From a virus (lineage: Duplodnaviria; Heunggongvirae; Uroviricota; Caudoviricetes): DNA of 59,697 bases. Position numbers and translations under genes: made by a program. Positions 26,669-52,189 of this stretch are shown here, piece by piece; position 1 is the first letter of the stretch, and every line of letters starts with the position of its first letter. Below the pieces are notes generated by a model. That model had not been told where the DNA came from. It did not search any database and worked only from the letters and a program-made list of their open reading frames with translations. The stretch is taken from the IMG/VR virus record IMGVR_UViG_3300032007_000013, one strand, 5' to 3'.

Positions 26669-28348
26669 TTACATAGCTTCTCGATTTTTAATAGTCTTCT
26701 CAGATTTCTAATCGTCAGGTTTTTCTGGCCTACCACCAGAATTATTACCTTCTGATGTTTTTTGTGAATTATTCTAAGAAGTTTTATTATTTGTGCCCAA
26801 AACATCTTGTCCATTAATAGTATTACTACTAAGTGGAGGAATCATTAAGGTCGGCAAATCAAGAATTTCATTTTCAAAATAAGCTAAATTAACAACAGAA
26901 CTTTGTGAATGTCCAAGTGCCACTACTGGTAAAAACTTAGACTAACCATTAGCAGTTAATTCTTTATAGTACTTAGATAAATCTTTATAATTATACTAAG
27001 TTGTTTCAAGCATTGAAAACTTAAAATTAAATTTTTTATTCTAACTTTTTCTGTCTACTATTTTATCAAAAAAAATATCGAATTGCAAGAGTAAATTACG
27101 CATAGTAGATTCGTCATCTAAAATAGATTTTTCTAAAGATAAATTATTATCACTATTAAATATATTTCGTGAAATACCAAGAGCATCATAAACTGCTCTT
27201 TCTACTTTTGCTAAATCATCTGTTTTTGTAGTTGTATTTTTATCGCTAATATCAATAGAATTAACATCAGCAAATGTAGTAACTACATCAATTCCAATAG
27301 CTCGACTTAACATGGCAACCATATTATTATGAATGTCTCTTGCTTCTTCCATATCAAATAATAAATCACCATTCTTATCAGTAGGTAATTTCTATACTAA
27401 TATTTTTAATAGTTGCTACATCTATTTTTTTCTATCTAATTCCTAGGCAGCATCTAAATCAATGATGGCCGGAATAGCATTTAAGAAGATAGGGAAGTCA
27501 TTTCCATTTATATTAAATTTGACAGTGCTACCTGGTTCTAATAAATACCATCCTTCTCTTCCTTTATAATAACCTTTATCTACTTCAAAACCATCTATTT
27601 CAAAATTAGTTAATTTTCCTTGTTTATATAAAACATATCCTTTTGAAAATTCATCAGGAAATAATTTTATAACCTTCATTCTATAAGCTGGATCGGCAAA
27701 TTTATCATCAAAAAATGCCATATTAAATTCTACTACTGGGCAACCATCCGCAGTAAAATGTGAACGACAATAATCTGGAGGCAATTCTTGTATCTATATT
27801 CCACGACTACCATCAACAATATATCCATAATAGCATCCATACTTAACTACTTTTAAAGCAATATCACCGCATAATTTCTTAATATATGAATTATCTAAAT
27901 AAGTGAGTATCTTTGTATACTCTTCTAATACTTTTTCTTTTTTAGCATTATCTTTTACATTCTCAGGATAAATATACCAATCATATCTATATAAAAACGC
28001 AAAATAATTACAAACTGTTTGATAAATGCCACTAGCATTATAGAAGAAATCAGAGATAGCTCGCATAGTTTTATAATCCTTTTTTACAATTGCCTACATA
28101 ATAGCAGCTTTATTGCAGAAAGGTAATTTTGCCTATTTTAAAGTTCCTAAGTCCAATAGAGCATCCTCTAATGTTTTTACCCCTACTCGAATTTTTCCAT
28201 ATTCTGCTATCTTATCTTCCTCTGAAGATTGCCTAATTGGGAATCCAAAATTAAATAAGTCAAAACCTTTACTATGAATTAAATTCTATCTGACCGCAGA
28301 ACTAAAATTATCATTATGGATAGTTTCATTATTTTCTTGTATATCCAA
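26669..28348 (-). CDS. Portal protein (559 aa, TAG=Gln)
   Basis: TTG start with AAGGAGG SD. Joins in-frame fragments 27794-28066, 27443-27784 and 27041-27352. C-terminal GGRPEK motif. Lies between terminase and protease. Confidence 0.8.
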
Positions 28349-28732: not shown

Positions 28733-30490
28733 TTAAGTTATAAACATACAATCTGAATATTTAAATTTCTTTTTCTTCTTTTTATTTTCTTCTTCTAATT
28801 TAATATATAATAATCCATATTCTGCCGCAGAAAATTTATCCTTTCGGATACCTTTATTAGCCTATTTTAAAATAATGTTAAAACCTTCATTTTCTTCTCG
28901 AAGATTCATCATTTCCTCTTTTAATATAGAAGTTAAAGTGAATGGTTTTAAATATTCTGCCCTTTGCTCAGGAGTCATTTTCTAACCTTTTGTAGTATTT
29001 AACAATTTAGACTTAGCAATACGTTCATCAATTAAGAACTTTACTTTACCAGCATTTAACATAGTCTAAAAATTAGCATGTGCCTCAGTATTCTCTGGAG
29101 CCTATGCTTTCATTAAATACATCGCCTCTTCTTGTGTTTCATCTGTTTTATATTTTTTATATTCATCAACAGCATCAGATTGAGTTCCACCATAAACACC
29201 AAAATCAGCAAAATGCTCACCAGTCTCTTTATCATCTTGTGATTTTACCATATAATCAACTAATCCAATACCAAGACCGTTAGCATCAATAACTAAACGT
29301 CTAGCATTATATTTATAAAATAATCTTTTTAATTTAATAGCTTGATCCTCAAAATGAGTATCATTCATTGTATAAATATTCACTAATGATTTAATAGCGG
29401 GTCCAGTAGACTATGGACTTACTTTCCAAACACATACTACACTATCGCATCCTTTACGACCTACATCAACTGAAAGAATATAAAAAGTCTTAACAGTCGA
29501 ACGTCCAGAAAATTCATATTCTGGTTGATTCAAAACACGATGGCGATCAAATGTTTCTCCATTAAAGAAAGCATTTTCAGCCGTACCGCTCCATTTACTT
29601 TCATATTCACGATCAAAAGATGCTTCATTGTAAGTACCATCTCGCTATAAGTCCTATAAGAACGTTCTATCTAATAATTTCATTAATACTGGAATACGCC
29701 AAGTACCACCCATAATAAATGCTTTTTCTGGTTCAGTTATCATCCAAACTAATAACTAAATTAATTTATCATATGCGAAAGTACCTTTCCATCCAGCTGT
29801 AGTTACATATATCTGACTCTTATTTAATGTTTCTTCTGGATACGACTATCCATCCATTGCTAATCTTGAAACATTCATTGTAGGAATAATAACTTCTGAA
29901 AGAATTTGTCCATCAACACCGACACATTCTTCTATTAATCCCCCATGACGACGTTTACCACGAGATTTTTCTGTCGCTGCTATATTGTCAAAGTAAGAGC
30001 CATTTTTAAACATAAAAATACAATAATCTTTACTAATTCTTGTTTTACCAGGTCTATGGTCTAACTCTTTATCAAGTGCTGGAACTAAACGACAAAGTTC
30101 ATCTACTTTTTCTTTTATGATTCCAGCTGCTTGTTCTTTACCACCTGATGTAACAAATAATTTAGCACGCGGGTATAAAATACATCTAATCATTAAAACT
30201 AATACAGAAAGAAAAGATTTTGAATAAGCACGTGGGAATACCATATAAACATATTTATATCGCATTGCCGCACGCAAGAAAACACGTTGATAAAAGAAAA
30301 ATTTTAATCCATCTTCTGGTATGTCTCCATCTAAACCTGTCTATAAAAAATCAATAAACATATCTGGATATTCTCGCCAATAACTTACATATTGACGAAT
30401 AATTGGTTTTAATGGAGATATACGTTCTTCTGAAATACCAATTTTACGTGAAGCACTTGTTGAAAGATCTAATAAGTCTTCAAGTACCAT
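28733..30490 (-). CDS. Terminase large subunit (585 aa, TAG=Gln)
   Basis: Adenine-binding FYQR, Walker A-like PRAYSKS, Walker B-like GGLIEE, coupling motif VTTAG, nuclease motifs LSVDVGR and IDANGLG. Joins fragments 29846-30277 and 29102-29383. Confidence 0.85.
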
Positions 30491-32770: not shown

Positions 32771-33814
32771 TCATTTTTTCTTATTTCGGCAGCATTTACA
32801 GATGGAGTAAAAGCCATCTTTACTTGTTTTATTTTTACTGAAATATTTATTATGAGCCAATTTGACTTGACCGCATCGACTGCATCTTTTATATTTTCCT
32901 GGCTTTACTTGTGTATAATACCAATTTAAATATTCATCTTCTGCGGCACAAGCAATTAAAGTAGGAATTTTACGACGCCATAAACTAGAAATATATTCAA
33001 CACTATGTTTAATTCCAAATTCTTGTTGAAGGGTAGTTTGAATATCAATATTTGACATTCCATCAATTTTACATTCTACAAGTCTTTTGTATAATGGATA
33101 AGCTTCTAAAGCTTTGTCACATATTTTTTCAAAATCATAAATTAAATACCACATATCATTTTCAAAATAGCCCCAACTATCTTCTTTTAATTTTGAATAA
33201 TTACATAAAATACCAGAGCAAACAGCGGGGTCAATTAAAGTAATTCCTTTTGAATGTAAATTACCTTCTTCATCTATTGTAATTTCTCCTTCTAATGGAG
33301 ATACATTTTTTGAATGAGTAATTTTTGTAAGGGTAATAGGTCTACGATACGCATTTTTGATTATATACTAATCTTTACGTAATTCTATTAATGTAGATTT
33401 AATAATATATGCTTCTCTACCTTCTGTGGTTTTTAATTTAGCTTCCCAAATACTTATGGCTTCTTTTAATTGTCGTAAAGGTTGTATTTCTTCTATATCT
33501 CGTTTAGTAATTGTTATCTTTGGCTAAAATATTACATTTTTATTCTCTGTTATTAAATTATAAATTCCATCTTCGCCATTTTCAAATTGGGACACAAGTC
33601 CTTCAAAAGAGGTTTCTCGTTTATTGACAGTAGTCATGCGGTTGTCAGTTAGAATTTTTCGTTCTTTACGTTCTTGTTTTTCCATACAAAGAATTAAATA
33701 GTCAGCTAGAATTTCAAGATACTTTTCACCAGGGTCTGGATTATCTTGAAGAATTTGTTTAACCAATTCATTTCTTTCTTCTGGATTATCAAGCGTATAG
33801 TCTAATTTTATCAA
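32771..33814 (-). CDS. Putative transcription regulator: sigma region-4-like HTH plus C-terminal Zn finger (TAG=Gln)
   Basis: Fragments 33524-33829 and 32771-33154 are in frame. Likely TTG start at 33814 after GGAGG. C-terminal CSRC...CKCC. Confidence 0.55.
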
Positions 33815-33850
33815 ACTATCAACCTCCACTTAACGATTTCTCTAACACAA

Positions 33851-34559: not shown

Positions 34560-35450
34560 AAGAATGGAAACTTTTCTCAGTTTTTCGTTTTCCCGAATTT
34601 AAAATCGTTTTAGAAGGAAAAATGGCCAGACCAAGCCTTGTAACAATTTTGTAACTTTTTTTGGCCGAAACCCACCCCCCGGGTATGAAAGTCAAACGCA
34701 ACTCAGCCGCCAACCGCAACACATCGTACATTTTTATCTCATGATAACGTGCTAAAAGTATTGCCGACCCTCTTGGCGACTGTCTCGAAACCTCAGCCAG
34801 CACCCTCCTATTTGCTCGCCCCGCAAACGCTCAATGCGGGGCGAGTTTCGCGTTGTAACCCTTTCGTAAATTTTTTGCGTAAAATGTTACAAAAATGTAA
34901 CACGCTGTAACATCCTGTAACCAAGAGCACTAAACACACAATTAGTTATCTCGGTTACAAAATGGTTACAAAATGTAGCACTACTGTAACCCTGATGACA
35001 AAATACATGTTTGCCTCTTTCAGCCAGCCAAGAGTTAGCACACACTAACAGTGGTTGACGTGCACTTTAACACGCTAAATCGTTGAAGTGCACAAAACAT
35101 ACGATTGACGCACTCTTTAACACAGTAAAGTATTAAAGACCAAGAGCAACAGACCAAGGCACATGCGGCAAGCAGGCAACGAGCCAAGGCCATCGACCAA
35201 GGCAGAGGCAGAGAGGACGAGCCAAGGACAGCAAGCGATGAGAGAGAGAAGAGAGAGAACAATAAATAAAATAAAAGAATAAATAATAATAAATAAATAA
35301 TAATAATTAAATAATAATAATAGTATAGTATACTACTATGATATGGGTAGGGTAGGGGGTACCCAGGGGGGTGGGGGGAGGGGGTGGGGTACCCACCTAT
35401 AGGGTAGCATGGAGTAGGCAGGTAGGGCAAATAGTTACAAAAGAAAGACA
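34560..35450. other. Non-coding junction (candidate genome terminus, terminal-repeat edge or origin)
   Basis: No credible SD-led ORF. Contains hairpins, TGTWAC repeats, a purine-skewed tract, (AAT)n and G-tracts. Separates the late and early modules. Confidence 0.5.
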
Positions 35451-35612
35451 TTGACAAACCACACAACCTGTGGTATAATAGAAGTGGTGCCTTGCAATAA
35501 GGTAAGCGACGACCTTTGTTAAAAAAATAACAATCTTTTTTATAAAATAACTCTTGACATTTGCCCGGGCATGTGGTATTATAATACCAGAAAGAGAAAA
35601 GGAGATACAACA

Positions 35613-35813
35613 ATGAACCACATCATCTACATCGACAGAACATTCGACAGCAACATGAACACTATCGAGACTCAGTGCAAGAGCAAAGTGTATGGGACTT
35701 TCTCCGCACGTTATCCCAGCGGCGTCAAGAAGATGGCTCGCGTGTGGAATAAAAGACTTAATAAGATGATTGCTATTCGGTTAGACCACGATCTGGTCAG
35801 CATCATTGACTAA
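35613..35813 (+). CDS. Small early protein
   Basis: Own promoter, AAGGAG SD and downstream hairpin. Confidence 0.7.
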   Translation: MNHIIYIDRTFDSNMNTIETQCKSKVYGTFSARYPSGVKKMARVWNKRLNKMIAIRLDHDLVSIID

Positions 35814-35888
35814 TAAGAAAGACTTAAAAGTCTTTCTTTTTTTTATAAAAAACTCTTGACAGATTGGCACATCCATGCTATAATACAA

Positions 35889-35940
35889 TCACAGGTTGAG
35901 GGAAACCACACTCGGGTAGCAGAGGGGAAAGACTAACTAA
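35889..35940 (+). ncRNA. Repeated small RNA candidate, copy 1
   Basis: Promoter at 35856 followed by CACAGGTTGAGGGAAACCACACTCGGGTAGCAGAGGGG with no ORF. Confidence 0.55.
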
Positions 35941-36040
35941 ATAGTAACAAAAGAAAGACAAAAAGTTTCTAAAAATAGTTGTTGACAAATAACATCCTTT
36001 ATGTTATACTACAATCAGAAAGAGACAGGAGGACACAGAG

Positions 36041-36241
36041 ATGCTCGAAACTATCACGATCAGAAGAACAAAGAAGTCAGAAGCAATCATTAATGCTTGC
36101 GTCATGGCTTATGGTTGCTTGATGGTGGAAAAGAAAACGCGTGTTTATCTACACGCCTTTAATGGTGACGGTGTTATCATCGAAGAGATTCTACGTGATG
36201 AACAAGTGAATGTGCTGTCTCGCAAGCCGTTCAGTCTTTAA
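36041..36241 (+). CDS. Small early protein
   Basis: Promoter, AGGAGG SD, terminator. Confidence 0.7.
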   Translation: MLETITIRRTKKSEAIINACVMAYGCLMVEKKTRVYLHAFNGDGVIIEEILRDEQVNVLSRKPFSL

Positions 36242-36366
36242 GAGATAACAGATACAAGAACTTAATTAAAAAAGTTCTTGTATTTTTTTTTGAAAAGGGT
36301 ATTGACAAATCATTTTTCTTGTGCTATACTATAATCACAAAGGGAAGAGAAAAGGAGATAACAAAG

Positions 36367-36675
36367 ATGATTAACATTAGAACGATTAACAAACTCACTG
36401 AGAATGATGGACTTACTCTTAAAAATGGCAAGCCAATCACTTATAAAAGTGGTTGGCAGGTTGCCACCGAGGGCGTGGAGTGCCACACCGCACGGGAAGC
36501 CATCAACGCGGTTAAGGCTTACGCTGGTAACTGCGGGGTGTGGTTCGCTGGTGGTATCTACTACATCGACAAAAGCCACCGCGTAAACACAAAGCGGGAA
36601 GCACTGGAAGTCGGCAGGGCTTGCAATCAGATTTCCGTACTCGGTTGGCGTAAAATGGCTTTAGCGTACTGCTAA
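36367..36675 (+). CDS. Hypothetical early protein
   Basis: SD-corrected start MINIRTINK. Own promoter. Confidence 0.75.
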   Translation: MINIRTINKLTENDGLTLKNGKPITYKSGWQVATEGVECHTAREAINAVKAYAGNCGVWFAGGIYYIDKSHRVNTKREALEVGRACNQISVLGWRKMALAYC

Positions 36676-36890
36676 AGCCATTTTGTTTTATTGGAAACTC
36701 ACAAAGCGGATTTTGCCCGGGCAAAATCGTCAATCCCGAAAGGCCCCGGACTTCACCACGCTAAAGTGGCAAAGTAAAAAACGCGAATGATTGTTAAACA
36801 AATAACAATAAAAAATGTCCCGAAACTACTTGACAACAGGCACAATGTGTGTTATAATACAGTTACCAAAAGGAAAAGAGGCAAATAATC

Positions 36891-37295
36891 ATGATAGTTA
36901 GATTTGCAACACCAGCCGACACTATCCGCATTATTCGGGCTATACAGAATAAACGCATGGACTACAACACGCCGCAAGATGTACGGGAAGATGTGAATGT
37001 GGGGCGGTTGATTGTAGCAGAGGAAAACGGCAAGCTTTTGGGGTCTGTGGCTGTCGTGTATAAAGCCCATCGTGGTTATTATGCTATCATGAGAATGTGC
37101 GTGTATTCCAAAGCCAGCAAGGGAAAAGGTGTAGCAAGTGCGTTAATTGACTACGTGTTAGCTCTTGGCCTTGGCACTTATGGGGCAACGCCTTGGAATG
37201 ACAATCCGGCCATGATTCACATTTTTGTCAAAAGAGGCTTTAAGTATCAATACACATTCAAAAATAAATACGATTTTTATAAAAAAGGGGCTTGA
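36891..37295 (+). CDS. GNAT-family acetyltransferase
   Basis: VRFAT..D, VAEENGKLLG, motif A (KGKGVASALI) and N...F.K.GF. Confidence 0.8.
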   Translation: MIVRFATPADTIRIIRAIQNKRMDYNTPQDVREDVNVGRLIVAEENGKLLGSVAVVYKAHRGYYAIMRMCVYSKASKGKGVASALIDYVLALGLGTYGATPWNDNPAMIHIFVKRGFKYQYTFKNKYDFYKKGA

Positions 37296-37350
37296 CAAAT
37301 TCAAGCCCTTATGTTATAATACAATCACAAAAGGAAAGGAGATCAAAAAA

Positions 37351-38254
37351 ATGTTTAATGTTTATTACATCCGCAATGAGTATGAACTCAACGCTAAATT
37401 TGAGAAAAGAGGAAGTGCTCTTTTATTTGCTCATAATTTTGTATCTATGTTAGGCGGAGATTATGCCGCTGTTACTGATACAGAAACAAATAAAACTATA
37501 CAAATTTATAGCAGATACTAAAAAAGGCTGATACAGCCTTTTTTATTTACATTAAAAAAATTGAAAAAAAGTGCTTGACAAATCGCCCGGGCAGTGCTAT
37601 ACTATAATCACAAAGAGGGAAGGGAAACCCAAACAAACCGGAAAGGAAGAAAAAAATGGAGTTTTACAGCATGGAGCAGTTCGAGATCATGGGCGACCTG
37701 ATGGAAGATTATCAAGAGTGGCTGGACTTTGAAGAGGACATGAAGTCCAATCCTTGGGGCTGAAAAAGCCCCAAGGAAATTAAAAAAAGTGCTTGACAAA
37801 GCAAAAGGCTTATGGTATAATACAATCAGAAAGAAAGAAAAGGAGATAAAAAAAATGTACATCGTAACTGCTTATAAGATTTGGGAAGAGTTTGAAGACT
37901 ACGACAAAGCCGAACTGTACTTCGCCGCTTTGAGACATGGCGGGTATAAGTACGTGGAACTGAAAAAGAAAACCACGACCGATAAATACGAATACTTTGA
38001 AAGTATCAAAATCTTTGTGAAATAATTAAAAAAGGGGCTTGACAAATCAAGCCCTTTATGTTATAATGTAATCACAAAAGAGAAAAGGAGATAAAAAAAT
38101 GAAAGTAATTCAGAACATCGAATGCGGCAACATCTTTCCCTACACCCTTGAGGGATTGATTGAAATGAGAGAAGAAGCCCGCGAACTTTACGATATTGAA
38201 GATCCCACCAATACGGTGAGCATTTCCGAATACTATCAGATAATTACGCTGTAA
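37351..38254 (+). CDS. Four small early ORFs (37351-37521, 37656-37763, 37855-38025, 38099-38254)
   Basis: Each has its own promoter and SD. 37656-37763 is highly acidic. Confidence 0.65.
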
Positions 38255-38315
38255 AAAGCGTAATTTTTTTTTGAAAAAGGGCTTGACAAATCGCCCGGGC
38301 AATGCTATAATACAA

Positions 38316-38368
38316 TCACAGGTTGAAGGAAACCGCACCGGGGCAGTGGAGGGGAGAGACTGACTTAA
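38316..38368 (+). ncRNA. Repeated small RNA candidate, copy 2
   Basis: Promoter at 38283 followed by CACAGGTTGAAGGAAACCGCACCGGGGCAGTGGAGGGG. Confidence 0.55.
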
Positions 38369-38468
38369 TAGTTACAAAAGAATGACAAAAAATTTCTAAA
38401 AAAAACTCTTGACATTTGCCCGGGCTTATGCTACAATACAATCAGAAAGAACAAAGGAGGACAAAAAA

Positions 38469-40955
38469 ATGTTCGACATCAATGTTATCAATGACTGGTA
38501 CGCAGAGCAGGAGTTAAACTGGGAAGAAAACCCGGTTGAGGATTGGCCGGACGATCTGTGGGACGATTAAAAAAGTCCCACAGAAAAATAAAAAAAAAGA
38601 CTTGACAAGCCCGGGCATGTATGCTATAATGTAATCACAAAAGGAAAAGGAGATAAAAAAAATGAACGCTAACGAAATCAAAGAAAGAATTGAAAAGCTG
38701 GAACGCTGGTGCTGGTTTGAGCAGATGGCAGATTTTATGAACTGGACAGCCTACGACAAAGCACAGGCCGAAATCAAAGAACTTAAAAAAAAGTTAGAAG
38801 AAATTGAAAAAAAGGCTTGACAAGCAAAAGCCAATAGTGTATAATGAAATCACAAAAGGAAAGAAAAGGAGAATAAAAAAATGAGTTATTTTATGGGAAA
38901 TGGTCGTGCTGATACCTGCCGCAATGGTGAAGCCTACAAGGGCAAGGCGGTTGAAATGGTGATTGATGTGCTGGAAATCCGCGACGGCTTTGAACTTCGC
39001 AAGGCGAGCGATAGCACCGGAACAGCGGCAAAGTTCCGCATCTTCTGGGATGGTGAGTGCATCAGCACCGTCTACAATGAAAAGGAAGCACGGGCACTGT
39101 TTAACGACTTCGCCCCAGCACCCCAGCGGAAGGCGGGACGCCCTAAGAAGAACGCGGCTTAAAAAGCCGCTTCTTTATCGCCCGGGCAAAAGTTACAAAA
39201 GAAAGACATTGACAAATAGCTAAAAGCATGTTATAATGTAATCACAAAAGAGAAAAGGAGATAAAAAAAATGACTATTTACAAGGTTGCTGCGTACAACA
39301 AATTTGAAGATGAATGGTATTTGGATGGGTACTATGTCCATTATAAAAACGCTAATGCAAGAATGGATGAACTTGATAAACCTTGGACAAATGCCAACGG
39401 CATTGAATTTCATACTGCCACGCTCGAAATAATTGAAACTAAGGATTAAAAATCCTTAGTTTTTTTATTAAAAAATGCTTGACAAAACAAGTCACTTGTG
39501 CTATACTATAATCACAAAAGAGAAAAGGAGATAAAAAAAATGACTTACGAAGAAATGTATGACCTGCTGGCCGATACTCTCGGAATTGATGAAGACGCTC
39601 TCGATCTGGCATTTGCCATTGGCGGATGCAACGAAGAAACCGCCGAAAGAATTTTGTTCTACTACACTGGCTGGCATTCTTTTGAGGGCTGGCTTGGTGA
39701 ACAGGAAGAGGACTGAAAAAGTCCTCTTCCGCCCGGGCGGAAAAGTTACAAAAGAAAAACATTGACAAGTCCAACAGAGTATGCTATAATAAAGGCACAA
39801 AGAAAGAAAAGGAGAATAAAAAATGAAGGTCAAGGAGTTAATCAATGTTCTTAATAACTATAACCCTGATGATGATGTCGAGGTCGTAGGTAATAGTGAT
39901 GGAGCAGTAATCCAGATCGGCAATTATAGGCCCTGCGTTGGCCTTTATGGCAAGAAGTATTTTATCTTTGTTTCAAAGGATGAAATCACCACTTAAAAAA
40001 ATAAAAAAGGGGCTTGACAAAACAAGCCCCGCATGATATAATACAATCACAAAGAAAGAAAAGGAGAAATAAAAATGACTACCTGTGCTGAGTGTCTGTG
40101 CCATGATGAGTGCCCGCTGTATCGCGGTGAAGATACCGACCAATGCTGGTATGAAAAAATCAGAAAAGAAAAGGAGAACAAAGAAAATGAAAAAGTTTGA
40201 AACCAAGATTACCCGCGACAATGCAGAAGTCAAGTGCATTGTGGAAGCTATCGACAAAGACCACGCCGCCCGCCGCTTCTTTGAGATTCTGGGAGAGCAC
40301 GGCCTGAAAATCAAGGAACTGTAAAAAGTTCCTTGACTTTTGCCCGGGCGATTTACCTCAAAAATTTTAAGTAAAAAAATTAAAAAAGGGGCTTGACAAA
40401 TGCCCGAGCTTGTGCTATTATAATACCAGAAAGAGCAAAGGAGATAAAAAAAATGAACATGAATGAGAAAATTAAGGAACTGGAAGCCAAAGGATATAGC
40501 AAGCATGACTATGAAGTAAATGAAGCTGCTGACAGTGGATGGATTATCACAGTTTATACCAGTCTGTGGAGTTTTGAAGAATATCTGTATGATACAGATG
40601 GAAATCCCATTGAAGCAACAGAAATCAATCTGTATGGCAAGCCCCAAAAAATTTATTAAATTGGGGCTTGACAAATAAAACAAAGCATGTTATAATAAAT
40701 ACAGAAAGAAAGAAAAGGAGAAATAAAAAAATGATTATTGAAAAAATTGAGATCGGCAAAATCTGGGAAGGTGGATTTAACGATTATCATTTCCAATGCC
40801 GCCCTGCTGGAAGCACAGAACCTTTTGATGTTGGGACAATGTACTTTGAAGACTTTGAAGCGTGGAGAGAAGGCGTAACCACCATTGAAAAAATGAAAGA
40901 TGTCCTTTTCCCCGAGGTCTATAAAATGTTAAAAGAAATGAAAAAAAGGGCTTGA
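38469..40955 (+). CDS. Ten small early ORFs (38469-38570, 38662-38820, 38881-39162, 39270-39449, 39540-39716, 39823-39996, 40075-40200, 40187-40324, 40453-40659, 40731-40955)
   Basis: SD-led ORFs, nearly all behind individual promoters. Several are strongly acidic or Cys-rich. Confidence 0.65.
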
Positions 40956-40984
40956 CAAGTTCAAGCCCTTATGTTATAATGTAA

Positions 40985-41037
40985 TCACAGGTTGAGGGAA
41001 ACCGCACTCGGGCAGAAGAGGGGAAGGACTGACTTTA
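40985..41037 (+). ncRNA. Repeated small RNA candidate, copy 3
   Basis: Promoter at 40952 followed by CACAGGTTGAGGGAAACCGCACTCGGGCAGAAGAGGGG. Confidence 0.55.
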
Positions 41038-41139
41038 AGTTACAAAATAGTAACAAATAGTTCCAAAAGAAAGTTGTTGACATAATACAGTTGACATGCT
41101 ATAATGATACCAGAAGTTAGGAAAGAGAGGAAATAAAAA

Positions 41140-41220
41140 ATGTATCAGACCGCTATTGCCGCCGCCCTTGTTGTTATCTTTGCCGTAGCACTTGCCGCAA
41201 TTTATTTAAGAAATTTATAA
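41140..41220 (+). CDS. 26-aa hydrophobic membrane peptide
   Basis: MYQTAIAAALVVIFAVALAAIYLRNL, with promoter and SD. Confidence 0.55.
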   Translation: MYQTAIAAALVVIFAVALAAIYLRNL

Positions 41221-41293
41221 AAAAGGGCTTGACAAGCCCGGGCATGTATGCTATAATGTAATCACAAAAGGAAAAGAAAAGGAGATAAAAAAA

Positions 41294-41515
41294 ATGGAAA
41301 AGAAATTCATTTATGACGTTGCGGGCTACACCTTTGAAGATACCGAAGCCTTTGGCAAGGCTTGGAAGGCCGCAAAGGAAAAGGCCACCGCTCTCCACTG
41401 TGCGATTTATCGCACTGTCCGCAAAGGTGAGACGGAACGCCGGGAAGTGTTCTTCAAGGCTGGGTGCTTCAACAATGTGGAGTATGCCACTGTCCACGAA
41501 GTGATGATTTTCTGA
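41294..41515 (+). CDS. Small early protein, paralog of 47812-48030
   Basis: Shared KKF.Y.VAG...AFG.AWK.A..KAT.LH..IYR...GCF. Confidence 0.75.
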   Translation: MEKKFIYDVAGYTFEDTEAFGKAWKAAKEKATALHCAIYRTVRKGETERREVFFKAGCFNNVEYATVHEVMIF

Positions 41516-41613
41516 GGGATAAAAAATCCCTCAGAAAATTAAAAAAAAGTATTGACAAGTAAAACAGATTATGCTATAATACAGACAGAAAGAAAGAAAA
41601 GGAGAATAAAACA

Positions 41614-42769
41614 ATGAAAGTTAAAATGAATCAACTAACCTACCACGCAAAAGAAGAGAGACGCGACAGACGCGAAATCGTCAAACAAGTAGGAATTGGC
41701 AGACCTATCGCACAGGTTAAGAAATTCAGTGATAACGACAGAGAAAAAACTGAAATGCTCACTGATACAGGCTTGATTGTGGTGATGGGTGATGATAACA
41801 AGATTATTACTTTGTATCTCGCAAGCACCGCAAAAGCGGCGGCAGTTTATAAGTCAGCCCATGGGGCAAATGCAATGATGCCTGTACAAATCTTTGAACA
41901 AATCAAAATCAATCGTATCATGTTCCCCGCTGATTAAAGCGGGGAATTGATTTTTATAAAAAAAAATGATATAATAAATTATAAAATAAAATAAAGGAGG
42001 CCGAAAAAGTTATGGATTTAATGCTTGCCCGGGCACTTTTAGCAATCGCAAAATATTGTGCTTCTTGTGATGATTGTGATAAATGTGTTTTACGCGATTT
42101 CTGCGGGAAAATGCCATTAGAGTGGTAATTAACGCGGCGACCGTACCCAATCGGGGCGGTTCGAACTTTCGCACGGTAAAGCGTTGAAGAATTTTTCGGC
42201 CATTGAGTCGGGCAAAACTTTTAATACTTTTTGCCCGAAACCTATTGACAAATAAATACATTTGTGTTATATTATAATTGTTCCAAGAGAGAACAACAAA
42301 AATAAAAAAGGAGAATACAACAATGTATAATGTGCGATTTGTTGACACTGTCCATGGCGAAATCGAGGAAAATTTCGAGACCTATGACGAAGCGATGGAA
42401 TACTGGAATGACTATGCGGATACCGAGTCTTGCGTGGCTGGTGTTCTGATGGATTTGGATAACTGCGAAATTCTTTGGAATTTTGACGATAGGGAGGCAG
42501 AATAAATGAAAAAGATTCTTGCTTTTATCCTTGTCTTTGTTCTTGTTCTGTCTCTTGCTGGATCAGCATGGGCTGATTTTAACATGAGCCTATTTGACAC
42601 AAAGTATAGTTTTAATTATGCTTATGTGGGTTTGCCTAATGGTAAAACGATCGAGGGCGAAGTCAAGAACTGGAAAGACTGGGATGATTCGGACATGTTG
42701 CAGGTAACTTTTGTAGACGGCTCAACCTATTATACCCATTCGTCTAACATTGTACTGATTTCAAAATAA
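41614..42769 (+). CDS. Four early ORFs (41614-41937, Cys-rich 42012-42128, acidic 42323-42505, signal-peptide-bearing 42506-42769)
   Basis: SD-led ORFs. The last begins MKKILAFILVFVLVLSLAGSAWA. Confidence 0.65.
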
Positions 42770-42842
42770 TAATAAAAAAGGGCTTGACAAACAAGCCCTT
42801 TTGTGCTATTATAATACCAGAAAGAGAAAAGGAGATAAAAAA

Positions 42843-43307
42843 ATGACTACTTACAGAGAACACCTCATCGACCGCATGACTCACATTTATGGACTTGAAA
42901 ATCCTATTGTGATTGAGTTTTGCCGCTACTGCGAAGACTGGGCCGATAATGATTGGAATAACAAAATGCTAAAGTGGCTTGTAGACGCCCATGCAGAAAA
43001 CCCCGTCTTTGAGGAAGATTAAAAATCTTCCTCAATCGCCCGGGCGGAAAAGTTACAAAAGAAAAACATTGACAAGTAAAGCAAAATGTGGTATTATAAT
43101 ACCAGAAAAGGAAAGGGGAATAAAAAAATGACTATTTACAGAGAACATCTTGTTGACCGCTTGACTCGTATTTATGGCCCCAAAAACCCCATCGTGATTG
43201 AGTTTTGCGGCTACTGTGAGCGCTGGGCGGACAGTGAAAAGAATGATATGTTGTTAGCCTTGTACGTAGAAACCGAGGGGAGATATCCCGCGATTAAGAA
43301 AGATTAA
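42843..43307 (+). CDS. Tandem paralog pair (42843-43022, 43128-43307)
   Basis: Both read MT.YREHL.DR.T.IYG..NPIVIEFC.YCE.WAD, each with its own promoter and a trailing GCCCGGGC. Confidence 0.8.
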
Positions 43308-43411
43308 GTATCTTTCTTAATCGCCCGGGCGGAAAAGTTACAAAAGAAAGACATTGACAAATAAATCATGATGTGCTATAATAAAGGCACAAAAAGAAAA
43401 GGAGAAAAACA

Positions 43412-43849
43412 ATGAATAAGGTTTTAAAAAAAGTAAAGACATGGGCTGGACCTGTGGGCGATTGGTGGTATTTCCATTGGGAAGAAGTGCTGGTGATTGG
43501 TTCAATGCTTCTTCTGGTGGTTGGGATGGTTTTCCTTGCTCTGTGGTCAAACGGGGCTTTTTATGATGAGGTCGAAAATTATGACTTCACCGCCCAAGTG
43601 TATGATAAAGACCATTATACTACGACTTCAACCTCTTATATTAAAAGTGGAGATAGCCGCATCCCTGTGACTCATACTCACCATCACTACAAAGTAATGT
43701 GGGAAGATGGTGGAGAGCGTGGCACATTTGAAATCGGTGAAGACCATTATGATTTAATTAAAATCGGAGACTTTATCAATGTCCATTGTTCTGTGAGAGC
43801 AGACAAGCAAGGGGAACTTCATTATTATTATAGTTTCAAGGGATATTAA
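43412..43849 (+). CDS. Membrane-anchored early protein
   Basis: Single hydrophobic segment followed by a beta-rich domain. Confidence 0.7.
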   Translation: MNKVLKKVKTWAGPVGDWWYFHWEEVLVIGSMLLLVVGMVFLALWSNGAFYDEVENYDFTAQVYDKDHYTTTSTSYIKSGDSRIPVTHTHHHYKVMWEDGGERGTFEIGEDHYDLIKIGDFINVHCSVRADKQGELHYYYSFKGY

Positions 43850-43940
43850 AATCCCTTGAAATTTTTTTCAAAAAGTGCTTGACAAGTCCAGAAGAGTATG
43901 CTATAATGAAGGCACAAAGGAAGAAAAGGAGAACAAAAAA

Positions 43941-44411
43941 ATGAATGATGAAGTAATTAAGGCAATGAACAAACAGCCCCGCAAAGAAAGCGACCTCAAA
44001 AAGTGGTGGAGGAAAAACAGTTATAAAGTTTGGCGTGTCGTGCTGTTTCCCATTTGGGCTTATGTGTGGAGCAGAGACAAGATTAAAAATTATCTCAATT
44101 CCCGCACTGAGTGGAGCGAAACCAGAGCGAATGAGATTCTTAATTATTACATTCCTCGTCGTGCTGACTGGAATAATGAAAATAAAACCTTTTATCTTTT
44201 TGATAATGGGTATGGGTGGTCGATGGGCTTCGCTAAAAAGTATCTGAAACTTAAAGACCGCAGATTTTGGAAACTTTACGCCAGTTGGTGCGGTGGGCGT
44301 GTCCGCAATTATCTTATCAATAATTTTGAACTGGAAGGATTCACCAAAGAAGTCGGTAACTGCTGGGATGGCTGGACTGAAATCACTTTCAGAATGAAAA
44401 CAGAGGATTAA
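43941..44411 (+). CDS. Trp-rich hypothetical protein
   Basis: SD-corrected start MNDEVIKAM. Confidence 0.7.
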   Translation: MNDEVIKAMNKQPRKESDLKKWWRKNSYKVWRVVLFPIWAYVWSRDKIKNYLNSRTEWSETRANEILNYYIPRRADWNNENKTFYLFDNGYGWSMGFAKKYLKLKDRRFWKLYASWCGGRVRNYLINNFELEGFTKEVGNCWDGWTEITFRMKTED

Positions 44412-44473
44412 AAAAATCCTCTGTTTTTTTAAAAAAGGGCTTGACAAATCGCCCGGGCTATGTTATATTATAG

Positions 44474-44523
44474 TCACAGGCGGAGGGACGCCACACTCGG
44501 GTAGTAGAGGGGGAGGCTTTTTT
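44474..44523 (+). ncRNA. Repeated small RNA candidate, copy 4 (covariant stem)
   Basis: Promoter at 44441 followed by CACAGGCGGAGGGACGCCACACTCGGGTAGTAGAGGGG. Confidence 0.55.
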
Positions 44524-44657
44524 ATTTGGAGGATGAGGGGGAGGTCGCCCGGGCGGCAACAAAAGAAAAACAAAAAGTTACAAAAGAAAGTCATTGACAA
44601 ATGCCCGGGCCTGTGGTATTATAATACCAGAAAGAGAGATAAAGGAGGATAAAAAAA

Positions 44658-46196
44658 ATGTACTTCGTTCTTGACATTGTCAGTAATAAAACCGTAGCAA
44701 TGACCGCTTTTAAGGATGCCGCTGAAATTATCGCCGCAAACTTCCCCGCAAAGTGCGTTGTTCGCTACGCCGCTGAAATAGTTAGCGGATACTCTAAGGA
44801 CAGCATGTTCTTTGAGAATGAGCAGGAAATGGAAAAAGGGGCTTGACAAAATAGCCCCTTTGTGATAGAATACCAATAGAAACAGAAAAGGAGAAATAAA
44901 AATGATGTATGACATTTATCCCTGCGATCTCGACCCCTTCGGTGAATGCCCGAAGCATTGTCAGGATTGTGCCCATTGCGTGGGCTGGTTCATGAATGAA
45001 CCAGAGGACGACGAAGAAAATTAAAAAAGGGGCTTGACAAATACAGCCCCCTGTGCTATAATAAAAACACAATGAAGGAGATGAAAACAATGAAAGCACG
45101 ACCGCCGCCCGCAAGGGTATGTGATTGGATTACTAATAAATTAGATAGTAATGTATAGGAGAATAAACTAATGAATAGAATTAGAGATGAGACGAAAACC
45201 TTTTAAGGTTTTCTAATAGATAGTATAGAATGATAGTAAAAAAATGAGGAAAAACTAATGAATAGAATTAGAGATGAGACCAAAACCATTTAAGGTTTTC
45301 GATGAATAGATTAGAATGATAGTAATAAAATAGAATAGAAGTAAGTGCCAAGGGGCGGCTCGGTTGGAGGATGGAAGTAGCCGAAAAAATTTTTCAATAA
45401 ATTTTGAAAAACCCCTTGACAAATGCCCGGGCATTTGCTATAATACAATCACAAAGAGAAAACAAGGAGGAAAAGAAAATGATGAATAGTGATTACTGGG
45501 AAGTCCACGAGGCCGAATGGCTCGCCGCGCAGGAGTGCATGGAATGGCTCCTGTTTGAGGCCGACATGGCCACTGACCCCTACCGGGATTAAAACCCGGT
45601 AGGGAGAAAATACTTGACAAGTCCAAAAGTGTATGATATAATTAAGGCACGAAAACAAAGGAGATAAAAAAATGAGAACTTGTAAAAATTGCGGTTGCTA
45701 TCTTCCCGATAATTGGACTACCTGCCCCGCATGCTTTACAAATGAAAATGAACAGCAAGAAATAAAAAAGGTTGTTTATAAAGAAACTAAACCACGTGAA
45801 TCTCTTTCTTTTAATGTTTGCCGTGTGGATATTCTTCATAAAAACAACACTAAATCTTCTAATATTTTTGCTTCTTATGAAAATGCTGTCAAGTTTGCTC
45901 ACCACATGACTTGTCGTGCTGATGTTGCTATTGTTCTTGTCGTTGATAGCCGTAGCGGAAAAATAATTGAAAAATTTTCTCGCAAAGGGTATTGACAAAT
46001 CCAAAAACGTATGGTATAATTAAGGCACAAAAGGAAAAGAAAAGGAGATAAAAAAATGTACGAATACACAATCCGTTATCTTGAAAATGGCGAAGAGGAT
46101 TTCCTTTATGGCTATTCTCGTCAGGATTTAGCAAGACGCTATCCCGAAATCCCGACTGACAGTTATGTCATTGTTTGCCGCGAGTACATCGACTGA
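44658..46196 (+). CDS. Small early ORFs (44658-44846, 44902-45024, 45479-45592, Zn-ribbon 45672-45995, 46056-46196)
   Basis: SD-led and promoter-linked. 45672 has CKNC...CPAC. Confidence 0.65.
45165..45335 (+). repeat. ~87-bp tandem duplication in a non-coding purine-rich tract
   Basis: AAACTAATGAATAGAATTAGAGATGAGAC-AAAACC-TTTAAGGTTTT...TAGAATGATAGTAA occurs twice. Confidence 0.85.
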
Positions 46197-46518: not shown

Positions 46519-46926
46519 ATGACTAACTACTACTTCGACATGGACGGCGTTCTGGCTGACTTCCATGGTGCTTATACTGATAGGGCACAGGCTTTTCAGT
46601 ATGATTTTATCGCTAACCTTGCCCCGTTTACCGCAAATGTTGAGCTGGCAAAGTCCCTCATGGCACAGGGCAATCGGGTTTACATTTCCACCATTGCCGC
46701 AAGTGAAGAAGCAAAGCAGGCGAAAATTGATTGGCTTGCAAAGTATCTCCCGGAGATCCCCCGTTATCGCATCATCATCATCGTGGGGCATGGCAACAAG
46801 GCCGAACACATGAAAACGAAGACCGGAATCCTCATTGATGACAAGCGTGCCAATTGCCGCCAGTGGGAAAAGGCTGGACAGCATGCGGTTTGGCTGGAAA
46901 TCAAGGGGGGAGCAATCTCCCTTTGA
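46519..46926 (+). CDS. HAD-superfamily 5'(3')-nucleotidase-like protein
   Basis: YFDMDGVLAD, K..WL..YLP, K, ILIDD...N...W. Confidence 0.8.
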   Translation: MTNYYFDMDGVLADFHGAYTDRAQAFQYDFIANLAPFTANVELAKSLMAQGNRVYISTIAASEEAKQAKIDWLAKYLPEIPRYRIIIIVGHGNKAEHMKTKTGILIDDKRANCRQWEKAGQHAVWLEIKGGAISL

Positions 46927-48297: not shown

Positions 48298-48792
48298 GTG
48301 TCAGGAGGGGTTGAGAGAATCCCCCACCCGACCCGGCGGTTCTTAAGGGTTCATCCTTAAAGCCCTTCCCCAATGGCGGTTCCCGTGAGTAGCCCCGCCC
48401 TCGGCCTTCGGGCAAACAAAAGCTAACACCCCACGCAGGCGGTGGAGTTAAAAAACAGCCGCTGGTTATGGTTCCAGAGTCAACAAAACAACCAACCGCG
48501 TACACGCGAAAGGCTTCCCACCATCGAAGCCGAGTAGGACAGGCCGCCACCTGACACCGCGGGATAGAAATAGAGGCCAACGGCTTCCCCAAGTGGCAGG
48601 GAAGCCAAGCCCAACGGAGCCAGCAGTAAATCGCCTGTGAGCGTCGTAAGACTGGCAAGAGCCGAGGAGCCGCACGCCGAAGTCCTACTGTGCGGGATAT
48701 AAATGTGGAGGCAACATGCGGGGAGCTTCTGGAACCCCCAGGCTGGTAGGATGGAAGCAACGGGACGGGAACAAAAAGCCCGCCCCATTTTT
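48298..48792 (+). ncRNA. Large structured ncRNA candidate (~490 nt)
   Basis: Promoter TTGCAA-17-TATTAT at 48265-48293. GC-rich, no SD-led ORF, nested long-range helices and multiple hairpins. Confidence 0.6.
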
Positions 48793-49786: not shown

Positions 49787-50221
49787 ATGACGATTTGGTT
49801 TGATATGGATGGAACGATTGCCGACCTGTATGGTGTGGAGAATTGGCTCCCGATGCTTCGGGCAAGCGATCCTACCCCCTATATGGTCGCCCGTCCGCTG
49901 GTAAATCTGTCTATTCTGGCAAGGATGCTGAATAAGCTCCAGAAACAGGGCTATGAAATCGGCGTGATTAGCTGGACTTCCAAGACTGGCACTCCTGACT
50001 ATAATGCCGCTGTGACTGCCGCCAAGTATGCGTGGCTGTCTAAGCACTTGCCGTCTGTGGATTTTGACGAAATCCATGTTGTTCCCTACGGCACTCCCAA
50101 GCAGGTCTTTGCCCATTCTGACGATGATATTTTGTTCGATGATGAAGCAAAAAACCGTGAAAACTGGACTGGATTGGCTCTGGATGTTACCGATATTATT
50201 GGTGCTTTGAAAGCCCTCTAA
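49787..50221 (+). CDS. HAD-superfamily nucleotidase-like protein
   Basis: WFDMDGTIADL, K..WL.KHLP, K, ILFDD...N...W. Confidence 0.8.
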   Translation: MTIWFDMDGTIADLYGVENWLPMLRASDPTPYMVARPLVNLSILARMLNKLQKQGYEIGVISWTSKTGTPDYNAAVTAAKYAWLSKHLPSVDFDEIHVVPYGTPKQVFAHSDDDILFDDEAKNRENWTGLALDVTDIIGALKAL

Positions 50222-51437: not shown

Positions 51438-51513
51438 GAAATGAAATTCAAAATGCCCTCTTGACAAATCCTAAAAAGTATGCTATAATGTAAATGTAAG
51501 TAAGAAATGATAT

Positions 51514-51600
51514 GCGTGGGTGCTGGAACTGGTATACAGATTGGTCTTAAAAACCAATGCCCAAATGGGATTGGGGGTTCAAATCCCCTCCCACGCACCA
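51514..51600 (+). tRNA. tRNA-Leu (anticodon UAA)
   Basis: Acceptor stem GCGTGGG/CCCACGC plus ACCA. Anticodon arm TTGGT-CTTAAAA-ACCAA, long variable arm, GTTCAAATC T-loop. Own promoter at 51461. Confidence 0.95.
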
Positions 51601-51691
51601 ATTTAAAAAGGTAGACAAATTTTTTGGCAGACTAAATTAATAAATTAAAAATAATTTTCATAATAAAATAGAAAAGGATGTGATTTTTATT

Positions 51692-52189
51692 ATGAAAAAA
51701 TATACAAAAGAATGGTTAACTGAATTATGTCAATCAAGCTATTCGTATGCTGAAGTTTTAGCAAAAGCTGGTAGAAAACCAGGTGGTGGGAATCAACAAA
51801 CATTAAAGACAAAAATTCAAGAATTTGGCATTGATATTTCTCATTTCACTGGCCAACGATGGTATGATTCACCAAATCAAAATGCTGAAACATTACATAA
51901 AAGTCATGAAAAATATACTTTAAAAGAAGTATTTACAGAAAATAGCCCTGTAACACAAAAAATATTACGAGGCTATATTGAAAGACACAATTTATTAGAA
52001 TATAAATGTGAAAAATGTGGTTGTAATGGGGAATGGCAGGGTGGAATTATTTCATTAGAATTAGACCATGTAAATGGAAATAATACTGATAATAGATTAA
52101 GCAATTTACGATATTTATGTCCCAACTGCCACGCTTTAACTGATACCTATCGAGGGAAAAATAAAGCCCTCAAAAATCAAAATAGATAA
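51692..52189 (+). CDS. HNH endonuclease (putative homing)
   Basis: CEKCG...LELDHVNGNNTDNRLSNLRYLCPNCH. AT-rich, directly after the tRNA. Confidence 0.9.
   Translation: MKKYTKEWLTELCQSSYSYAEVLAKAGRKPGGGNQQTLKTKIQEFGIDISHFTGQRWYDSPNQNAETLHKSHEKYTLKEVFTENSPVTQKILRGYIERHNLLEYKCEKCGCNGEWQGGIISLELDHVNGNNTDNRLSNLRYLCPNCHALTDTYRGKNKALKNQNR

Follow-up and report, generated by a model that had tools for sequence, protein, structure and literature searches.

A 42-nucleotide (nt) element that occurs four times in a Caudoviricetes phage sequence (IMG/VR virus record IMGVR_UViG_3300032007_000013; 59,697 nt, referred to here in its full length as the window) represents a well-supported new family of structured RNA, absent from the known RNA families searched. 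The element combines a gene-independent RNA at strong early 5' ends with untranslated purines that resemble a binding site for the ribosome or for the GGA-binding protein CsrA, and these features lead us to read it, with a probability of roughly 0.45, as an untranslated mimic of a Shine-Dalgarno (SD) or GGA site. Displayed on a compact scaffold, such a mimic would capture the 30S subunit or CsrA, and would serve as a 5' stabiliser in cis, as a decoy in trans, or as both.

A search of the window with the pattern CACAGGYKGARGGAMRCCRCAC returned exactly four matches, all on the plus strand (35890, 38317, 40986 and 44475), where none were expected from 100 shuffles. A covariance model of the family scored the same four copies at 67 to 78 bits, compared with 8.8 bits for the next best site in the window. 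The copies are not tandem repeats: they are spaced 2427, 2669 and 3489 nt apart, and each has a separate, near-perfect sigma-70/sigmaA promoter, with 5 nt between its -10 hexamer and the element. A terminator hairpin precedes three of the four. An SD with a start codon does not come directly after any copy; 90-120 nt further on there is a second promoter, with an SD and an ATG. The features are listed below, using the columns of the family alignment (hairpin P1, columns 5-8 with 15-18; variable pairs 19:28 and 23:32).

35856..35884, plus strand: first promoter of copy 1, TTGACA-17-TATAAT, TG-extended, 12/12 consensus positions, after a terminator hairpin (35815-35838) and T-run
35890..35931, plus strand: element copy 1, columns 1-42, 73.2 bits
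35894-35907, plus strand: hairpin P1 of copy 1, GGUU/AACC, loop GAGGGA
35908:35917 (19:28, A:U) with 35909:35916, and 35911:35922 with 35912:35921 (23:32, U:A): predicted pseudoknot pairs of copy 1
35922-35931, plus strand: purine tract of copy 1
35982..36010, plus strand: second promoter after copy 1, driving a gene of 66 amino acids (aa) at 36041-36241
38283..38311, plus strand: first promoter of copy 2, 12/12, after a terminator at 38242-38265
38317..38358, plus strand: element copy 2, GGUU/AACC, loop GAAGGA, 19:28 G:C, 23:32 C:G, 72.5 bits
38409..38437, plus strand: second promoter after copy 2, driving a 33-aa open reading frame (ORF) at 38469-38570
40952..40980, plus strand: first promoter of copy 3, its -35 hexamer overlapping the stop codon of the gene at 40731-40955
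40986..41027, plus strand: element copy 3, GGUU/AACC, loop GAGGGA, 19:28 G:C, 23:32 U:A, 78 bits
41039-41054: GTTAC-N6-GTAAC box in the spacer after copy 3
41077..41105, plus strand: second promoter after copy 3, driving a 26-aa hydrophobic ORF at 41140-41220
44441..44469, plus strand: first promoter of copy 4, TTGACA-17-TATATT, 11/12, after a terminator hairpin and T-run at about 44401-44431
44475..44516, plus strand: element copy 4, GGCG/CGCC, loop GAGGGA, 19:28 A:U, 23:32 U:A, tail GAGGGGGAGG, 66.9 bits
44517..44523, plus strand: a C and a run of six T directly after copy 4, not flagged by a simple terminator scan
44594..44622, plus strand: second promoter after copy 4, driving a 62-aa gene at 44658-44846

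Copy 3 is the window copy nearest to the family consensus. A preliminary description of this DNA had placed a promoter-driven small RNA at these four sites. The sites are real, if 1 nt downstream of the positions it gave, and at each of them a full promoter does stand before the element in place of a gene. Its observation that copy 4 replaces GGTT/AACC by GGCG/CGCC while keeping the loop GAGGGA is likewise correct, as is the ANGGA motif that it saw in the loop, which reads GAGGGA or GAAGGA in the window and is conserved as ARGGA in the family.

To define the family, metagenomes were scanned with a pattern in which the stem and the variable positions were unconstrained and many other columns were fixed. 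The resulting set (103 metagenome loci, the window and three IMG/VR contigs, L001-L003) holds 142 instances and 97 distinct 52-mers from more than 100 metagenome contigs, and with the covariance model built from the family, additional diverged copies were detected on these contigs, each immediately preceded by a consensus promoter. The JGI and WGS names of the contigs hint that they may come from many separate gut or rumen assemblies. Each genome carries 4-7 copies, with up to six or seven on single contigs (L104, L108), and the element may point either way along a contig (e.g., L070, L049). Among the three IMG/VR contigs with the element, L003 is syntenic with window positions 35430-44991, has two extra promoter-plus-element units relative to the window, and is missing the gene that follows copy 1 there. 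Such presence and absence differences between close relatives, together with the copy number, bear out the suggestion that a promoter-plus-RNA cassette has been amplified.

In 125 of 132 testable instances, a promoter of the form TTGACW-N16-18-TAnnnT ends exactly 5 nt before column 1, which places the element at the 5' end of the transcript. Ordinary messenger RNA (mRNA) units of the surrounding promoter array also begin with ACAAT-CACA, and hence the CACA of the element belongs to the generic start region of a unit. Transcription most likely starts at A2, leaving three unpaired nucleotides before the hairpin. Conservation, measured as information content, drops after column 42.

Mutual information across the 97 distinct sequences singles out four column pairs, 7:16, 8:15, 19:28 and 23:32. 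The first two lie in P1, in which 100% of cells are paired across four stem variants (GGUU/AACC, GGCG/CGCC, GGCU/AGCC and GUCG/CGAC): 7:16 is CG in 52 sequences and UA in 45, 8:15 is UA in 68 and GC in 29, and 6:17 is GC in 96 and UA in one. Stem covariation, which the preliminary description had drawn from copy 4, is therefore upheld in the larger alignment. Pair 19:28 occurs as GC (42), CG (36) or AU (16), and pair 23:32 as UA (43), CG (40) or GC (13). The earlier work had correctly recorded a purine at column 19 and a pyrimidine at column 28, although it did not link them as a covarying pair. Overall, 99.6% of cells are paired, compared with 79% in shuffles and 41-61% when the partners are slid, and the pair states occur in 19 haplotype combinations, indicating that the changes arose repeatedly on different backgrounds.

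Since 19 < 23 < 28 < 32, the two covarying pairs outside P1 cross. A nested hairpin of columns 19-23 with 28-32 (19:32/23:28) was considered and rejected, as only 20% of cells would pair. The adjoining C:G pairs 20:27 and 22:33 are invariant in the alignment, in which these four columns were fixed by the search pattern; in diverged copies C20 may be U, which still pairs with G27, A21 may be G, and G25 and G26 may be A. The simplest fold consistent with these pairs would be a miniature H-type pseudoknot, with stem 1 formed by 19-20/27-28, stem 2 by 22-23/32-33, and loops of 1, 3 and 3 nt. Stacked on P1, the pseudoknot would give approximately eight continuous base pairs.

These patterns also bear on whether the conserved sequence acts in DNA instead, as an operator at +1 to +40 that a phage regulator would bind, or as an initial-transcribed sequence that tunes promoter escape. 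The fixed distance to the -10 hexamer would suit such a signal, as would an array full of DNA palindromes (CGCCCGGGC in promoter spacers and GTTAC-N6-GTAAC boxes). However, crossing Watson-Crick covariation at 19:28 and 23:32 makes no sense in duplex DNA, in which the palindromic pairing holds for just 20% of cells, and P1 stems that vary freely around a fixed loop and core follow the pattern of an RNA hairpin, not that of a half-site operator. We consider a DNA-level role highly improbable. Two other candidates were rejected. A small peptide could be imagined because copies 1-3 have a short frame starting with the TTG at column 7, with TAG, CAG and GAG alternating at columns 28-30, but copy 4 and many other members have CGG or CTG at the putative start, there is no upstream SD, and the 19:28 covariation would be left unexplained. 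A G-quadruplex would have only three conserved GGG runs, one of which is GG in GAAGGA loops, and the Watson-Crick covariation points elsewhere.

All 97 distinct sequences carry ARGGA in the P1 hairpin loop. Diverged classes use other P1 stems (CAAC/GUUG, GCUG/CAGC, GUGG/CCAC and GUAG/CUAC) with loops of 5-10 nt and retain the core; classes C and E still have A-R-G-G-A in the loop, and class H is left with AGGA alone. Two sequences elsewhere in the window resemble parts of the element. A large GC-rich non-coding RNA at 48298 begins with the hairpin GGGG-UUGAGAGAAU-CCCC (48300-48329) followed by CACCC, which is the layout of P1 and the start of the core, and the two RNAs may share a 5' module. 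An mRNA leader, CACAAAGAGGGAAGGGAAACCCAAACAAACCGGAAAGGAAG..ATG, found at window positions 37604-37650 and in L010 (after its second promoter), is conserved between contigs and resembles the 5' half of the element (GAGGGAAGG..AAACC). This leader may connect the element with ordinary leaders in evolution.

Directly after the knot, columns 33-42 form an invariant purine tract, GAGGGG(R)(R)(R)G, in which GAGG is invariant but lies in columns fixed by the search pattern. When columns 29-46 were paired with a generic Firmicutes 16S 3' end (anti-SD), the predicted energies averaged -13.0 kcal/mol, with a worst value of -9.1 kcal/mol, compared with means of -10.3 kcal/mol for real SD windows of the phage and -3.9 kcal/mol for random 18-mers from the region. 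An ATG, GTG or TTG starting at columns 40-58 occurs in 26 of 123 distinct copies (21%), compared with 69% of composition-matched shuffles, a depletion that is not to be read as a probability since the sequences are related. The element thus displays a predicted site of SD strength from which start codons have largely been excluded.

What follows the element varies widely. No downstream gene is tied to the module: at least 53 unrelated families are represented among the first ORFs after it, and in 30 of 142 copies the next 400 nt contain no ORF at all. Arrays of GUUAR-N6-YUAAC hairpins come after the element in five contigs (L040, L091, L106, L023 and L054). At the DNA level, these GTTAR-N4-8-YTAAC inverted repeats occur up to six in a row (e.g., L040:1133-1290), and their fifth stem position covaries (G:C, A:T, C:G); they may be either RNA hairpins or protein-binding palindromes. 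Larger structured sequences are also found, either directly after the element or its hairpins (L054, L070) or behind the next promoter (L077).

We propose that the element forms the first nucleotides of early transcripts made by the host RNA polymerase (sigmaA type), and that it would fold into a P1 hairpin with an A-R-G-G-A loop, a pseudoknot stacked on P1, and a single-stranded purine tract. The scaffolded purines would then capture a host factor, either the 30S subunit (through its anti-SD) or the GGA-binding CsrA. In cis, the bound factor and the 5'-terminal hairpin could block 5'-end-dependent decay (RNase J type) of the RNA that follows, in the manner of STAB-SD, the SP82 polypurine stabiliser and the aprE leader; in trans, RNA from the 4-7 consensus promoters per genome could soak up the same factor. 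The production of this RNA, its fold, the identity of its partner and its effect are inferred from sequence. A version of this proposal in which the element would be a new class of viral RNA, a 42-nt pseudoknotted ribosome-binding-site mimic that is made from 4-7 consensus promoters within minutes of infection and titrates CsrA or free 30S subunits or disarms an RNA-binding defence protein, appears possible though doubtful. Among the roles put forward in the preliminary description, an SD decoy gains indirect support from the SD-strength anti-SD complementarity of the tract and from the depletion of start codons. Its discrete small RNA is not evident: only 19 of 132 copies have a T-run of their own, and the others continue into the promoter unit that comes next. 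A simple CsrA hairpin site, which it also invoked, leaves unexplained the pseudoknot core, the most conserved part, which it had overlooked.

Several observations weigh against an SD or GGA mimic. In 106 of 132 copies the next gene is preceded by a second full promoter, 90-170 nt beyond the element, and most of the mRNA of that gene would accordingly lack the element. In three contigs (L002, L014 and L028) the element faces the terminator of a convergent gene, with no same-direction gene after it, and hence there is no downstream mRNA to stabilise. Class B (at least 10 contigs) is without the P1 hairpin, though AGGGA and the whole core are kept, and neither a stabiliser nor a plain SD decoy would call for so elaborate a conserved pseudoknot core. 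Column 32 changes in step with column 23 instead of being fixed as G, so that the best SD core, GGAGG, is present in approximately 40% of copies. Folding energies are unremarkable (z +1.2 to -2.1), and each pseudoknot stem has only 2 bp. Many of the "invariant" columns were fixed by the search pattern, both ends of the RNA are predicted, and a generic Firmicutes anti-SD stood in for that of the host.

A T-run at columns 44-52 is found in 19 of 132 copies, among them only copy 4 in the window; the other 113 have none, and read-through is likely. Within the T-run subclass, columns 16-24 are complementary to 35-43, which stand immediately ahead of the U-run, and the resulting terminator-like hairpin competes with P1. 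The predicted energies of this hairpin are -5.7 to -10.1 kcal/mol versus -6.4 to -7.7 kcal/mol for P1 (-6.1 versus -7.7 kcal/mol in copy 4), and it could act as a weak terminator or a switch. A GGCUU tail is present in 12 of the 97 distinct sequences; 11 of these have a GC-rich P1, whose 3' arm GCC is able to pair with the GGC, and the twelfth (L094) has GGUU/AACC. The nearly equal energies of the two folds and the match between the GCC arm and the tail would be expected of an attenuator or riboswitch-like switch, in which P1 and the pseudoknot alternate with the terminator hairpin and a ligand or protein decides read-through from the first promoter. Nonetheless, such a switch is very unlikely to explain the family: the T-run is confined to the minority of copies given above, switching read-through would control little when a second promoter follows, the terminator helix is without covariation support because the tail of the subclass does not vary, and no Rfam riboswitch matches.

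The setting of the element is an early promoter array. Between 35451 and 59130, the plus strand of the window (40% G+C) carries approximately 60 near-consensus TTGACA-17-TATAAT promoters in 24 kb, including 30 perfect 12/12 promoters within 33.8-53.7 kb. They are mostly TG-extended, with a T-run/A-run UP-like element upstream, and almost every small gene in the array has its own host-type promoter. Tiny genes are preceded by a stereotyped leader (ACAAT-CACAAAAG..AAGGAGAT-N8-ATG), and some promoters drive non-coding RNAs or a transfer RNA (tRNA) instead of a gene. Approximately 10 plus-strand terminators lie between 35.8 and 48 kb, serving only about 10 of some 35 genes in the element-bearing part of the array. 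The lack of a terminator after the element is therefore normal here and is not by itself an argument for action in cis. Side features of the array include the palindrome CGCCCGGGC between the -35 and -10 hexamers of many promoters (e.g., 38289-38305 and 44447-44463) and, at other promoters, an inverted repeat, AAGGGCTTGACAAnnTCAAGCCCTT, that contains the -35 hexamer (e.g., 40946-40970); both could be operators or bidirectional hairpins. GTTAC-N6-GTAAC boxes lie upstream of many -35 hexamers.

This layout raises the possibility of processive antitermination of the nut or put kind, whereby the RNA, as it emerges, would ride with the polymerase through the terminators of the early array, either by itself or with a protein (phage or Nus) bound to its purine loop. 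The element is promoter-proximal, recurs within each genome and invariably stands at the head of early transcription, the copies in the window are 2.4-3.5 kb apart among the terminators described above, and in the T-run subclass a terminator-like hairpin follows directly. Its covarying stem and conserved purine-rich loop recall the boxB hairpin of lambda. At 42 nt, however, the element is smaller than put (approximately 70 nt), EAR (approximately 120 nt) and canT, and read-through is not needed where nearly every array gene has its own consensus promoter. No arginine-rich or basic N-like protein is found among the protein families common to the loci, the three contigs with a convergent gene do not fit, and both the SD-strength tract and the depletion of start codons would go unexplained. 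RNA-only antiterminators do have precedent in phages and Gram-positive mobile elements (put, EAR, conAn2 and canT, PMC9378689, PMC11658703; canT is 452 nt long, PMC11658703). On balance we consider antitermination unlikely.

Searches for known relatives returned no counterpart of the element. Against Rfam 15, the only match of the whole window above the gathering threshold was to a tRNA, and permissive searches with copies 3 and 4 gave chance-level matches only (E >=1), with no RNA of ToxI type, CRISPR-repeat type or riboswitch type. GenBank phages had no match to the element by megablast or blastn, and the phage phAss-1 had none to the covariance model. Looser patterns applied to IMG/VR returned chance matches, namely coding repeats (L004, L005, L006 and L008), an unrelated site (L007) and the SD region of a high-GC phage (L128). 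Across 185,579 prokaryote species genomes (one per species), the core pattern matched 15 times, always in high-GC genomes; the matches are without promoter, hairpin, covarying pairs or array and are attributed to chance, although a diverged counterpart could escape the pattern. No paper describing the element was found, and the phAss-1 paper (PMC10607447) mentions neither promoters nor non-coding RNA. Searches for a partner were also negative within their scope. The pyrimidine complement that an antisense target would carry occurs in the window only opposite the elements themselves, and when approximately 1,500 ORFs of the loci were clustered, no RNA-binding protein emerged by co-occurrence. 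A protein atlas look-up aimed at the host returned viral clusters only. In Pfam, the proteins of ten neighbouring early genes included GNAT, NT5C and HNH domains and no toxin or ToxN-like partner.

These results bear on an anti-defence decoy, an RNA produced early in large amounts that would imitate a host RNA restraining a defence protein (e.g., a pseudoknotted type III antitoxin) or another guide or repeat RNA. A small, pseudoknotted, multi-copy RNA expressed early from strong promoters would suit this role, as would the differing cassette number between relatives. There is also precedent: phage pseudo-ToxI RNAs neutralise ToxN, and CptI repeats of 45 nt occur in gut Clostridia. The copies are, however, dispersed 2.4-3.5 kb apart with their own promoters and are not in tandem. 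The 185,579 species genomes offered no host template for such mimicry, and neither Rfam nor the ten neighbouring proteins supplied an antitoxin-type match or a toxin partner. We regard such a decoy as distinctly unlikely.

The phage itself reads TAG as glutamine (Gln) and probably infects Clostridia. Late genes occupy positions 1-33829 on the minus strand (30% G+C), include virion proteins (PHROGs), and have frames that stay open only when TAG encodes Gln. The portal protein shares 40% identity with its counterpart in phAss-1, a member of the "Caudoviricetes code 15 clade" (PMC10607447) whose host was guessed as Clostridia (Eubacteriales) by its authors (PMC10607447). The first late-strand gene, of a phage sigma-factor family, has two in-frame TAGs, and a full-length factor would thus need TAG suppression; ARAGORN found no suppressor tRNA in the window. 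NT5C is the most widespread protein family on element-bearing contigs (40 loci). Principal features outside the four units are as follows.

4545-15836, minus strand: frame of 3763 codons with 148 in-frame TAGs
26669-28348, minus strand: portal (PHROGs)
28733-30490, minus strand: terminase (PHROGs)
32771-33829, minus strand: first late-strand gene, phage sigma-factor family (phrog_5767, E 1.5e-49)
36891-37295, 46519-46926 and 49787-50221, early array: a GNAT acetyltransferase and two NT5C-type 5'-deoxynucleotidases
51461-51600 and 51680-52189: tRNA-Leu (anticodon UAA) with its own consensus promoter, then an HNH endonuclease gene

Between the late and early blocks (35130-35425) lies a T-poor run of purine/CCAAGG repeats, with (AAT)n and a block of G-runs (GGGTAGGGGG...GGTGGGGGGAGGGGGTGGGG), which could be a genome end, an origin or a packaging region.

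The family adds a structured RNA to an almost unstudied clade of stop-codon-recoding phages, and indicates that early "takeover" arrays carry RNA cassettes beside tiny protein genes. A portable 5' stabiliser, if the element is one, would offer a compact part for use in Firmicutes expression. A decoy role would point to a host factor whose immediate neutralisation is essential to these phages, and were that factor CsrA, the element would be the first RNA sponge for CsrA in Firmicutes, and a phage-borne one.

Comparison with known systems shows partial likenesses to several of them. ToxI, CptI, TenpI and pseudo-ToxI share a pseudoknotted unit of 36-45 nt and a precedent for phage counter-defence. 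ToxI, CptI and TenpI are toxin-processed tandem repeats beside a toxin gene, whereas the element is dispersed, has its own promoter, and has no cellular look-alike in the genome scan. Lambda nut (boxA and boxB) and HK022 put resemble the element in being promoter-proximal and repeated at several early units, with a covarying stem, a purine-rich loop and terminators downstream. In contrast to both, each gene downstream of the element has its own promoter. In addition, nut works through boxA and an N-type protein, and the element is without a boxA-like part, with no N-like protein found at its loci. HK022 put has two stem-loops, and the element is half its size, with one hairpin and a predicted pseudoknot. 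The mRNA operator of T4 gene 32 likewise places a small H-type pseudoknot at the 5' extreme of a phage transcript and follows it with an unstructured, protein-coated tract, as the purine tract follows the putative pseudoknot here. That operator is, however, single-copy, autoregulatory and tied to one gene, with an A/U-rich tract, whereas the element is multi-copy and gene-independent, with a G-rich purine tract.

The CsrB/RsmZ sponges share A-R-G-G-A in a short hairpin loop (in every hairpin-bearing class of the element), further GGA motifs in single-stranded purines 18-30 nt away, an untranslated SD-like sequence, and high gene dosage. They differ in having many hairpin sites, whereas each module of the element has one hairpin-loop ARGGA and its other GGA motifs only in the single-stranded tail. 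Unlike these sponges, the element is also mostly without its own terminator, and a sponge role leaves the pseudoknot core unexplained. In Firmicutes, the protein FliW restrains CsrA, and we know of no CsrA sponge RNA in this phylum.

Untranslated 5' stabilisers of SD type are known from Gram-positive bacteria and include that of phage SP82 (listed in the review PMC3997798, as references 106, 109 and 179). Unlike these, the element has a conserved pseudoknot between its hairpin and its tract and is present in 4-7 copies per genome; it is also usually cut off from the next gene by a second promoter, and sometimes stands alone or heads non-coding RNAs. Two hallmarks of stabilisers are nonetheless found in the element, an SD-complementary tract without a start codon and a position, with a hairpin, at the inferred 5' end. 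Like STAB-SD (cryIIIA), the SP82 polypurine stabiliser and the aprE leader, it carries an untranslated, 16S-complementary polypurine sequence near the 5' end, and, as in aprE, in which a 5' stem-loop is combined with ribosome binding, its hairpin begins within approximately 3 nt of that end. The context is shared as well, namely the early region of a phage with a probable Firmicutes host.

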